A DNA stretch of 63,625 nt, filler included, from Dugesia japonica (GCA_001938525.1; 5 parts of 5 records of this genome joined end to end with filler, not necessarily neighbours in it), one strand, 5' to 3'; positions 48,811-54,815 are shown, counted from the whole stretch's first letter. The notes: generated by a model from the sequence alone, not told the origin. Translations and numbers: made by a program.

Positions 48811-49068
48811 GTGATTTTAAGAGAATTTTTAAAATCTTTCTTACCATTTCCATTTTCTTCATCAATATTAAAACAAGATAAAATTCATGGAAAATTAGAC
48901 AGAAAAGAAATTACAGAAAAAATTTATTATTGGGATGATGTAATAATTAAAAGCAAACAAATTGGTTATTGTTATTTAGGGAAATTACTATTAATACTAA
49001 AAACAAAATTTAAAAAAGTTCAGAATTTAAAAAATATTTATTTGAAAGAAAAATTTATTATTCAGTAA
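48811..49068 (+). pseudogene. Polinton/adintovirus-associated small protein (YYWDD motif)
   Basis: EKIYYWDD resembles a recalled YxYWDD motif of Polinton small proteins; lies directly upstream of the ATPase. Confidence 0.45.
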
Positions 49069-49197
49069 GACACATAAATAAATTAATACAATTTAGTAAG
49101 TTAGTAGATAAGTTTCCAAAAATATTAACTACTAAATTTTCATTTCGAAAGATCACATGAAATTTTAAAGTGATTAATGAAATTGTTGATAAAGAAA

Positions 49198-49950
49198 ATG
49201 GCAGCGTTTGTATGGAATAAAAATATTACACATTTTAATAATAAAGTATTTCCTAATAATTTTAGACTTTTAATGATAGGATCTTCANNNNNNNNNNNNN
49301 NNNNNNNNNNNNNNNNNNNNNNNNNAACTCCAGGATTTTTAGATTACAATGTTTTAATAATTTATTCCACAACAATTAATCAATTTGAAATTCAATTACT
49401 TTTCATTGGTTTTGAATATGGATTATCTAAAGAAGAAACTATTTTAATATTTGAAAAACAAAATATAGTTCCAAATAGTTGTGTTACTCCTCATCAAGTT
49501 GTTCAATATTTTCTTGAGAAAAAATTAGTTACTAAAAAACAAGATCTGTTATTATAACATTATCAAATAAACCTAATGAAATAATTTCTTGTGATAAACT
49601 TTCAGAGGAAAAGAAAAATCTAACAATATTCGATGATGTAGTTAATGAGAAAAATCAACAAGTTCAAAAAAGTTATTTCACAAGAGCTAGACATTCAAAT
49701 TGTAATGTGATTTACATTTCCCAAACATATTATCATTTAGATAAAAACTCTATCAGGAATAATTCGAATTGTTACATTTTCTTTAAATTAAATAAAACTG
49801 ATAGATATAATGTTTTATCATGAATTATTTTCAAATATTTTTAAAAACAAGTTAGATTATGATTATGAGGTAAATCTTCATTGGAAAACTAAATATAATT
49901 ATTTTTACTTGAATAAGGAAACTAATGAAATGTTAGATGACCTTTTCTAA
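49198..49950 (+). pseudogene. A32/FtsK-like DNA packaging ATPase
   Basis: FRLLMIGSS (rest of Walker A lies in the N gap), LTIFDD (Walker B), YFTRARHSNCNVIYISQTY...SIRNN; frameshifted. Confidence 0.92.
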
Positions 49951-50551
49951 GAGATTCCAAGTTTCGATTTCATTTCATTAATAATTTTAGTTTGATTTTC
50001 TACCAACATTTTTAAACTTTCTTTATTTTTCTGAGTCTTTTCTTTTTTTGTTCCCATTATTAGTTCGTGAACTTCATTTACCATATTTTTACTAATAGCA
50101 ATTTCATCATCAGTTAAAATTTCATCATTAACAGCTTTCTGTTGAAATAGAAATAACTTATTTTTAAGTTTCTTTATTTAAGTTTCTTTATTAACTTTTC
50201 ATATCTTTCTTTTCTTGAACTTATTAATGAAGAGTTTATTGTTCCAATTACAGGTAACACGGAAATTGCGCCAGTAATTATTGGTATACCAATTACTGCA
50301 AGGGGCACCCCAACTGGTGTAATTAATATAATTCCTCCAATTCCAATTCCAACACCAACAATTATTTGTGTATAATTTATACCTGAATCTAATCTTTCCC
50401 ATCTTTTGTGTATTTTTTTATAATGTTTAATTTTATCCTTTACATAGTAAAGGTCATTTTCAAAATCTCTAATTCTAGACATCGCAAGTTTATTTTTTAA
50501 ATCTAAAATTGTATAGCCTTCATGTAAACTAGGATATATTTTGTCTTCCAT
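49947..50551 (-). pseudogene. GasderminX-like membrane-active protein of adintoviruses
   Basis: IYPSL N-terminus, basic helix, long G-rich hydrophobic hairpin, then KAVNDEILTDDEI beyond the stop. Confidence 0.65.
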
Positions 50552-50554
50552 TTT

Positions 50555-53275: not shown

Positions 53276-53711
53276 TATCCGTAGGCCAGCTTTGCGATTG
53301 TCCTTTTTCTAATGTTAAATTATCATATAAATTTTTCATTTCAGATATTATTTCATCAAAATCAACTTGAGAGATTTTATATAAAAAATAAATACACAAG
53401 ATACCACAAATTTTACTATCAAAATGTTGCACTTGAATTTTATTATATTTCGTGGTGACTCTATCGAGTCTCTCTAAAGGTTTTAAACCAAAAAAGTCAA
53501 AGTATTGATGATTTGTGTAACATGTCTAATGTGTTCCTTTTTGATTTGTATTTTGATAATTAAAAATATAATTGCCTTCTTTTATTTTTTTAGGTATTTC
53601 ATTTTTCATATAAATTTCTAATGGCATTTTTAAAAAGTCTGCAATTGAATATAAATCAAAATTTGTAGTTGTGTTAATTCCAAATGTTTTCAAGAAATCA
53701 ATCAATGACAT
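53268..53711 (-). pseudogene. Adenain-like (C5) maturation cysteine protease
   Basis: KGTH*(W), YFDFFG, QVQ, ICGILC: H, D, Q and C residues retained; one in-frame TAG at 53526-53528. Confidence 0.9.
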
Positions 53712-53752
53712 TTTCTTAAATCTAAAAAATGAGTCACGCCGTGGCTCTATAA

Positions 53753-54476
53753 TCAATATTTATGTAAATGAACTAAAATAGAAATTATCTCTTGGTTAAA
53801 ATCGATTCTGTTAAAATTTTCATCCATAATGTTAAATTTTAAACTATCAATATATTTTGTATTAATTTTAGAATAAATTGTTGCAGATGGTCTTTCAATA
53901 ATTTTAAATCCAAAAGGAACTGTGTTAATTGGAAATGAATACAATAAATTTATTTGTTTAGTTTTTCCTTCTGGAGATTTTACATAATTACCTTTTACAA
54001 TATTGCAAGTTAAATTTATCATGTTAATATGTGAAATGTCAATTTTATTTTCTGAATAATAATTTCCTGGTTGATAAGTTTTTTTCATCGAAACCTAGCA
54101 TTTTATGAAAGAAAGATTTGTCGTCAAAAGTTAAAATGTTTTCTGTTTTTATGCTACATTTTGTTGTTGAAATGTCAGGTGTAACTTCTATTCCATATTT
54201 TTTTAATTTTTCTGATATTACTTTTATTTCATATGCTCCAGGTTCAATTTTAATTGGTTCAGTTTTCTTTGGTTCAATTTTAATTGGTTCAGTTTTCTTT
54301 GCTAGAGGATCAATTTTAGTGTTAAATTTATTATTTAAATTTGTTATGTTAAAAATAATATTGTAACATGTAAAANAAATTAATCCAAGTTCATATTCTG
54401 AATCTAATTCTATGGGAAATTTTAAATCTAATTTTAAATCTTGTTCTTTTCCAACTACTAAGAATTGATGTGACAT
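53753..54476 (-). pseudogene. Polinton/adintovirus minor capsid protein (penton), one frameshift
   Basis: PIELDSEYELGL, IEPGAYEI, MLGF, CNIVKGNY, PFGFKIIERP, DENFNRIDFNQE..LHL. Confidence 0.9.
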
Positions 54477-54488
54477 CTTTGTTATTTC

Positions 54489-54815
54489 TTATTTAAAATA
54501 TTTAGATTTATATTTTTTATAAATCTTATCAGATATTAAACTCTTCATCTTTAATTTTTTACATACTGTTTTAATTTCTTCATGTAAATTATCATGTTCA
54601 GATTTTGTTGCTGAAATTAATAATGTTAACTTTTCAAATAAACCTATTATTCCTTTTCCTTCAACTTTGTTTTTGGGTCTACCTTTTTTAGGTTCAGATA
54701 TTTCTTTTAAAAATTTACAGTATTCATCATCAATAGTTTCTTTTACCATTTTTAAATACGTCTTAATAAATTTTTTTGTTGGTTTATCTTTCTTTATATT
54801 CTCTTTATTTCCCAA
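54489..54815 (-). CDS. Small basic Polinton/adintovirus-associated protein
   Basis: Intact ORF; KKGRPK and EGKGI followed by EKLTLLISATKSEHDNLHEEI, resembling a recalled LxLLxxSxxAGN..NEI domain. Confidence 0.55.
   Translation of the reverse strand: MGNKENIKKDKPTKKFIKTYLKMVKETIDDEYCKFLKEISEPKKGRPKNKVEGKGIIGLFEKLTLLISATKSEHDNLHEEIKTVCKKLKMKSLISDKIYKKYKSKYFK

Follow-up and report, generated by a model that had tools for sequence, protein, structure and literature searches.

Does the run of tightly packed genes at positions 48,811-54,815 of the stretch of Dugesia japonica DNA analysed here (63,625 nt including filler, hereafter the window) derive from a Polinton, and what is encoded by the repeated sequence within it? 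We consider it very probable that these are the virion genes of an integrated adintovirus-type Polinton, broken and truncated by the end of the scaffold, with what is likely a vertex-fibre gene carrying 4 predicted jelly-roll domains. At 15-33% GC per kb the window is AT-rich; it consists of joined scaffolds, separated by 4 identical 100-nt spacers that each read N44-12mer-N44 (N-TTAATTAATTAA-N). The block occupies the right end of a 13.8-kb scaffold (41,117-54,901), and the element is cut by the artificial spacer at 54,902-55,001, where the sequence-only reading of this DNA had already placed the end of the piece. The same scaffold carries repeat DNA and a host exon encoding a WS/DGAT C-domain (44,661-45,809, minus strand; Pfam E 1e-18) that is open across 382 codons. 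Host repeat DNA runs into the ATPase gene without an N gap (47,175-49,287); given this join and the transcribed host exon on the same scaffold, the element is endogenous. The sequence adjoining its left side (47,700-48,380) is a multi-copy repeat with 35-40-bp internal units, to which many partly fitting RNA reads align on both strands. Judged by the exon, the repeats and the transposon fragments, the host would be an invertebrate animal.

Polintons, or Mavericks, are the adintoviruses of the Eupolintoviridae (formerly Adintoviridae), Amphintovirales, Polintoviricetes (PMC8502044, PMC12451622), and their defining gene set is laid down in PMC8502044 (sections 3.1 and 3.2) and 10.1101/2023.08.22.554363. 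We compared the block with 121 loci in all, 120 of which were fetched by an IMG/VR scan with the protease active-site motif, and ran profile searches against 1,758 window segments. Two of them serve as comparison loci. L054, an IMG/VR contig (L054:1-10671, 10.7 kb), represents a Polinton that is nearly complete; its genes, all on the same strand, encode pPolB, ATPase, rve integrase, penton, double jelly-roll (DJR) capsid, a pX-like protein, protease, a SLATT-like and a fibre-like protein. L015 has a DJR capsid, PLA2 and rve. Since their gene sets match the definition in PMC8502044 and 10.1101/2023.08.22.554363, both are Polintons.

The plus-strand gene at 49,198-49,950 encodes an A32/FtsK-type genome-packaging ATPase. 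It is interrupted by two frame changes (approximately 49,545-49,557 and 49,800-49,823), and its Walker A region falls in a 38-N gap. The piece at 49,536-49,820 matches Pfam Pox_A32 above the gathering cut-off (E 1e-5), and 9 of 50 candidates are ATPase homologues with 67-75% identity, all of them metagenomic; these proteins are 250-260 residues long, and the two main pieces of the window gene align along them. With a profile of five homologues, 44 ATPases were found in the 121 loci, the nearest being that of L054 (E 3.5e-49 vs 2e-27 for the next, a difference of 22 orders of magnitude). We built a tree from the 44 locus ATPases, the 6 homologues that remained of the 9 once three partial sequences had been set aside, and the C piece of the window ATPase, which covers 39% of the columns. 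The window ATPase groups with the 6 metagenomic homologues (100/98), then with L054 (96/85), and together with four PLA2-bearing Polinton loci these form a 12-row group (99/95) apart from the 39 other rows. The protein is of the A32 packaging type and clusters with the ATPases of Polintons. ATPase scans returned nothing from IMG/VR and one weak locus, L001, from metagenomes. The nearest ATPases (P0001-P0020) reside on short metagenomic contigs of 0.85-3.7 kb that belong to several collections, which hints at a Polinton clade not yet sampled, in small AT-rich hosts.

On the minus strand, 53,268-53,711 encodes an adenain-like capsid maturation protease, interrupted by a single internal stop that immediately follows the codon of the catalytic His (53,526-53,528). 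H61, D72, Q95 and C102 do not vary in any of the 9 aligned rows (the window and eight locus proteases), and the profile of these rows matches the adenovirus proteinase 1AVP (E 7.9e-7); the retained His-Asp-Cys(+Gln) set and this match bear out the adenain identity proposed earlier. A protease profile built without the window still matches both window pieces (E 3e-12 and 3e-6). By tblastn, 52 of the 121 loci have protease matches, a count that is partly circular because the loci were chosen by a protease motif. Searched alone, the window protease and penton pieces have no match in Pfam, NCBIfam or the PDB.

The evidence for the penton is independent of this choice of loci. A profile of three Polinton-locus proteins matches both pieces of the minus-strand gene at 53,753-54,476 (E 5.7e-15 and 3.9e-8 among the 1,758 segments), which has one frame change near 54,085-54,090. 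Its counterparts adjoin capsid genes in four Polinton loci, and two of the profile proteins lie beside PF21738 capsid genes. Homology to these capsid-adjacent genes points to a penton (minor capsid protein) homologue, as first suggested. None of 88 candidates was homologous to the penton C piece, and the penton profile found no solved relative.

What had been described as a small basic protein upstream of the penton (54,489-54,901, minus strand) is likely the 3' end of a longer gene, conserved among Polintons, that the end of the scaffold truncates. A C-terminal profile from 4 loci matches this segment only (E 0.0035), and the relatives in the four loci measure 247-401 aa. The segment lies directly upstream of the penton, in the same place as L054:4671-5411.

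The ATPase, the protease and the penton thus all group with Polinton homologues, in line with the sequence-only reading. The identities of the ATPase and the protease, the homology and synteny of the penton, the repeat array and the lesions are direct observations. The tight packing of the minus-strand genes also stands: 12 nt separate the upstream segment from the penton and 41 nt the penton from the protease, protease and fibre-like gene overlap by 8 nt, and 3 nt lie between the fibre array and the hydrophobic gene. The described convergence of plus-strand genes on this run holds for the ATPase, the stop of which shares 4 nt with that of the last minus-strand gene, and is questionable for the plus-strand small protein. 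This doubtful ORF (48,811-49,068, plus strand) has a GTG start at 48,811 and no in-frame ATG, and its coding signal is low (z 2.1) compared with z 4.0-6.6 for the other ORFs tested. It has no Pfam or NCBIfam match, and none of 1,508 locus ORFs matches it significantly; it could be a degraded gene of the element or a chance ORF. The earlier description of 48,811-54,815 skips the stretch 50,555-52,504, which contains four tandem coding repeats of approximately 500 bp.

The block shares the A32 ATPase, adenain-like protease, penton, tight gene packing and germ-line integration followed by decay with the Polintons/Eupolintoviridae. It differs from them in that capsid, pPolB, integrase and TIRs are not visible on this scaffold, in that no PLA2X or pX-bearing gene was found, and in its long fibre-like gene with a four-unit array. 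The sequence-only reading had likewise noted that major capsid, pPolB and integrase are not visible, and the profiles, of limited sensitivity, found none of them on 41,117-54,901. For the DJR major capsid the profile was an insensitive one of two sequences, and the scaffold ends inside the element; pPolB has no profile match anywhere in the window, where the element is truncated; and an rve integrase lies at 12,816-13,541, on another scaffold. No long inverted repeat was found on 41,117-54,901, which holds only one flank of the element. Calling the block a near-complete morphogenesis cassette was an overstatement, as no major capsid is seen on the scaffold and all well-identified genes are broken. 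By PMC12451622 the family would be Eupolintoviridae, a membership that is incomplete here, three core genes and the ends not being visible.

The same absences would fit a non-autonomous or capsid-less derivative, or a Polinton-like virus outside the Eupolintoviridae, that never had the usual pPolB/integrase/capsid arrangement. No capsid gene is present between penton and protease (as in L054) or after the penton (as in L015), the left flank has no pPolB, integrase or terminal repeat, and polB-lacking yet amplifying Polintons are described in 10.1101/2025.02.07.637071. We nevertheless regard this as very unlikely. The scaffold ends inside a gene, so that the missing genes can lie beyond it, and the ATPase is closest to those of integrase- and pPolB-bearing loci. 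Moreover, while the gene order of the window differs from both comparison loci, it varies even between L054 and L015. An integrated, truncated Polinton of the usual kind is the reading that we retain. L054 resembles the block in its ATPase, the nearest among the 44 locus ATPases, in the conserved gene directly upstream of the penton, and in the fibre-like and hydrophobic genes that come after the protease. It differs in having the capsid between penton and protease, a 286-aa fibre-like protein without a repeat array, and all genes on one strand.

The last minus-strand gene (49,947-50,551; coding z 4.9 and 4.0 for its pieces) is membrane-protein-like, with a coiled coil, a hydrophobic stretch of about 45 residues and a basic helix; its frame changes where 14 nt are duplicated in tandem (50,163-50,192). 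It had been labelled GasderminX, a name defined by C-terminal gasdermin homology, typically together with a pX-like domain (PMC8502044). This label finds no support. Neither piece matches Adeno_PX at E values up to 10, and a search of solved structures with the hydrophobic-gene profile, built from two sequences, turned up no gasdermin. The separate pX-like ORF of L054 (Adeno_PX E 0.046) is without a counterpart in the window. None of 20 candidates was homologous, and the predicted model (pLDDT 46.5) was too poor for a fold search. The only counterpart, a weak one (BLASTP E 0.02), is L054:9003-9389, which matches SLATT_4 (E 8e-5) and SLATT_1 (E 0.0016), both below cut-off. SLATT models have no match to the window gene itself; its hydropathy fits the SLATT layout, in which two hydrophobic segments follow an N-terminal helix. 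SLATT genes are reported from Polinton-like viruses in PMC12220804, and SLATT labels are present in adintovirus maps in the supplement of PMC8502044. Judged from hydropathy and this weak similarity, the gene is probably two-segment and SLATT-like, which we offer as a lead and not as a finding.

If the gene were a true GasderminX after all, the element would have a Terrapene-class (beta) virion module. This is unlikely given that both pieces lack pX likeness, that the pX-like ORF of L054 is unmatched and that the weak counterpart is SLATT-like. A beta-type module would, however, agree with the absence of PLA2X, the marker of the Mayetiola-class (alpha) virion module: a PLA2 profile has no match in the window, where the element is truncated, and the ATPase is nearer to the PLA2-less L054 than to the PLA2-bearing loci. 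Dropping the GasderminX label removes an unsupported gasdermin identity from the element, and we refer to the gene as the hydrophobic gene.

Between the protease and the hydrophobic gene lies the most unusual part of the block. A fibre-like gene starts at an ATG at 53,275 on the minus strand, overlaps the protease at 53,268-53,275 and reads through to 52,505. Its N-terminal motifs are common to four Polinton-locus proteins, with 9 invariant columns, and its N-terminus is the top match of the locus profile among the 1,758 segments, yet a weak one (E 0.046). The earlier label of a fibre-like protein is strengthened, and the gene becomes much longer, as the whole would comprise about 900 codons. 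The N-terminal motifs are followed by a long coiled-coil-like region that ends in a linker motif. Beyond it, at 50,555-52,504 on the minus strand, lie four tandem diverged units, each consisting of a helical linker and a beta domain of about 100 residues: unit 1 at approximately 52,504-51,911, unit 2 at 51,910-51,421, unit 3 at 51,420-50,963 (mostly under a 201-N gap) and unit 4 at 50,962-50,555. All four show a coding signal (z 5.2-5.9). The units of about 500 bp share 68-76% nucleotide and 37-55% amino-acid identity and have diverged by about 25-30%; an assembly artefact as the origin of the repeats is ruled out by the 68-76% identity.

Are the fibre-like ORF and the array a single gene? The array contains two internal stops and one visible frame change near 51,900, and the stop at 52,505-52,507 separates the fibre-like ORF from unit 1. 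These breaks between the ORF and the units, the Met codons near unit starts, and the failure to find a relative with a fused architecture among 1.84 billion protein representatives, the 121 loci and IMG/VR would all suit tandem, separate small accessory genes (or captured cargo) within a correctly called Polinton, and not a fibre head. The position of the stops speaks for one gene, however. The stop at 52,505-52,507 sits inside the linker motif common to all units, unit 1 continues in frame behind it, and homology crosses the stops. Because the stops lie inside inter-unit homologous sequence and the last residues of the fibre-like ORF are the linker motif, we conclude that array and ORF most likely form one gene. 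In addition, the last unit stops precisely with its final beta strand, leaving 3 nt to the next gene, and the density of lesions is similar in the other genes of the element, making separate genes quite unlikely.

Neutral divergence of the units to the observed level would be expected to leave 18 stops (11-27) in the 554 codons, while 3 are seen, and 0 of 2,000 neutral simulations gave as few stops as the array. This indicates that the array diverged inside a functioning gene with its frame under selection. At the amino-acid level, pN/pS is 0.88-1.19 in 6 of 6 unit pairs, with interval bounds from 0.49 (lowest) to 2.49 (highest). Synonymous saturation was considered as a cause of values around 1 and rejected, as silent sites are far from saturated (0.28 vs 0.79). 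With such wide intervals, a pN/pS of about 1 fits relaxed constraint as well as diversifying selection. Low amino-acid constraint or selection for change is what a receptor-binding head would show.

An AlphaFold2 model of one unit (pLDDT 68, pTM 0.57) has nine strands and three helices. Against known structures it matches generic jelly rolls with Z scores of 7-7.9, an rmsd of about 3 and approximately 97 aligned residues, among them the furin P domain, the baseplate and needle knob of phages, the STIV turret, carbohydrate-binding modules and TNF. Unrelated beta-sandwiches commonly reach Z scores such as the best one here, 7.9, and a fold shows no function. Foldseek matches to toxin receptor-binding domains (TM 0.33-0.42, 8-17% identity) were likewise rejected as kinship, being those of a generic jelly roll. 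A trimer prediction for a single unit (score 0.00, partner fold uncertain) speaks neither for nor against a trimer. The unit sequence has no match among the 1.84 billion representatives, in IMG/VR or in the 121 fetched loci; the best Atlas score, 0.76, is a lead only. The unit domain also matches no Pfam family, and the fibre-like gene has no match to the S74 chaperone.

On the predicted fold and the placement behind a coiled-coil-like region, the array is likely a multi-headed vertex fibre. Such a modular architecture has a precedent in the fibres of protist Polinton-like viruses, which according to PMC12220804 carry laminin-G arrays of up to seven repeats as well as collagen and phage tail repeats, and in many cases end in an S74 chaperone at the C-terminus. 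Those fibres resemble the present one as long vertex-fibre-like proteins with an array of beta-sandwich binding domains, which here are predicted. By contrast, the window units are not laminin G, follow a coiled-coil stalk in alternation with helical linkers, and belong to an animal-type Polinton; an animal Polinton with such an array was not found in the open-licence literature. We tentatively propose, as a possibility that we rate as somewhat doubtful, that a lineage of animal Polintons assembled its multivalent attachment fibre from a jelly-roll family not described before, with a four-fold duplication and host-driven diversification of the copies. This would be evidence that such elements spread as infectious virions, their receptor binding being tunable, up to about 1% divergence ago. 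Four diverging heads built from a domain for which no relative was detected constitute a concrete candidate receptor-binding module and allow a selection test.

By analogy with adenoviruses and Polinton-like viruses, the ATPase of the ancestral virus would have pumped a linear genome into a double-jelly-roll capsid that was matured by the protease, with the penton forming the vertices. The fibre of about 900 residues may have docked at the vertex by its conserved N-terminus, its coiled-coil stalk reaching outward and its four beta-sandwich heads being presented to ligands on the host surface, glycan or protein. The heads would have duplicated and diverged while the virus was under selection, the frame being kept while amino acids changed at the rate of silent sites. 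A role at membranes, as the virus entered or left the cell, is likely for the hydrophobic gene. After integration into the germ line, the copy would have decayed neutrally.

The extent of this decay can be read from 4 internal stops and 5 visible frame changes in 1,707 codons, with at least one lesion each in the ATPase, penton, protease, fibre and hydrophobic genes. The few lesions per gene noted earlier are few only in a relative sense, every well-identified gene being broken. The 4 stops correspond to 1.3% (0.35-3.3%) substitutions per site if neutral, with the frame changes adding to this, and the earlier impression of a fairly young insertion is reasonable on that range. Decayed Polintons are common in animal genomes, and the cassette itself is therefore routine.

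Some lesions may be assembly errors, given that several frame changes lie in homopolymer runs of a draft assembly with N gaps and single Ns throughout. Taken further, all lesions could be errors of a low-coverage assembly and the copy an intact or nearly intact viral one, of a family that may still be active; similar DNA is indexed in sequencing runs of several studies, with word shares up to 0.44. This we hold to be highly improbable, as all four in-frame stops arose by substitution, a duplication of 14 nt accounts for one break, the neighbouring host exon of this scaffold stays open across its 382 codons, and there is little RNA. Among the matches listed, parts of 52,022-54,900 occur in 12 of 24 sequencing-run rows from 5 studies, none at half of the words, and no RNA run containing this interval is among them; being index matches, the DNA runs are not taken as evidence here.

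An expression check, proposed with the sequence-only reading, gave no appreciable element RNA: depth was below 1.4x per strand in 4 of 4 RNA runs of other individuals (6-26% of each read), and 0-0.1x for the array across 50,792-52,511. The WS/DGAT exon reached up to 13x on one strand (minus) in 3 of the 4 runs. In these runs, 87-91% of aligned reads fit only partly. The reads differ from the WS/DGAT exon at 16 listed positions, showing that the runs represent another strain; as those individuals possibly lack the insertion, the result means that no expression was seen, and not that this copy is silent. Most likely, the Polinton copy is now inert.

Other mobile DNA is present in the window. A second, more decayed Polinton-like piece (module 1; 12,816-16,200, plus strand) lies on scaffold 8,918-24,793. 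It comprises the rve integrase at 12,816-13,541 (Pfam E 5e-8, profile E 4e-28) with a chromo-end piece at 13,374-13,541, a penton-like piece at 14,985-15,125 (E 0.003) and a candidate capsid piece at 15,681-16,001 (E 0.66). Module 1 was considered as the missing half of the element; being on a different scaffold, it cannot be taken as the same element. Mariner/Tc1-type transposase fragments are found at 56,456-57,340 on the minus strand (Pfam Transposase_1 E 1e-5). Gypsy-like LTR retrotransposon pol fragments (RT/RNase H-like, by eye) occur on the plus strand at 10,070-11,533 and 62,106-63,563, with an integrase profile match (E 1e-10) at 63,105-63,560.
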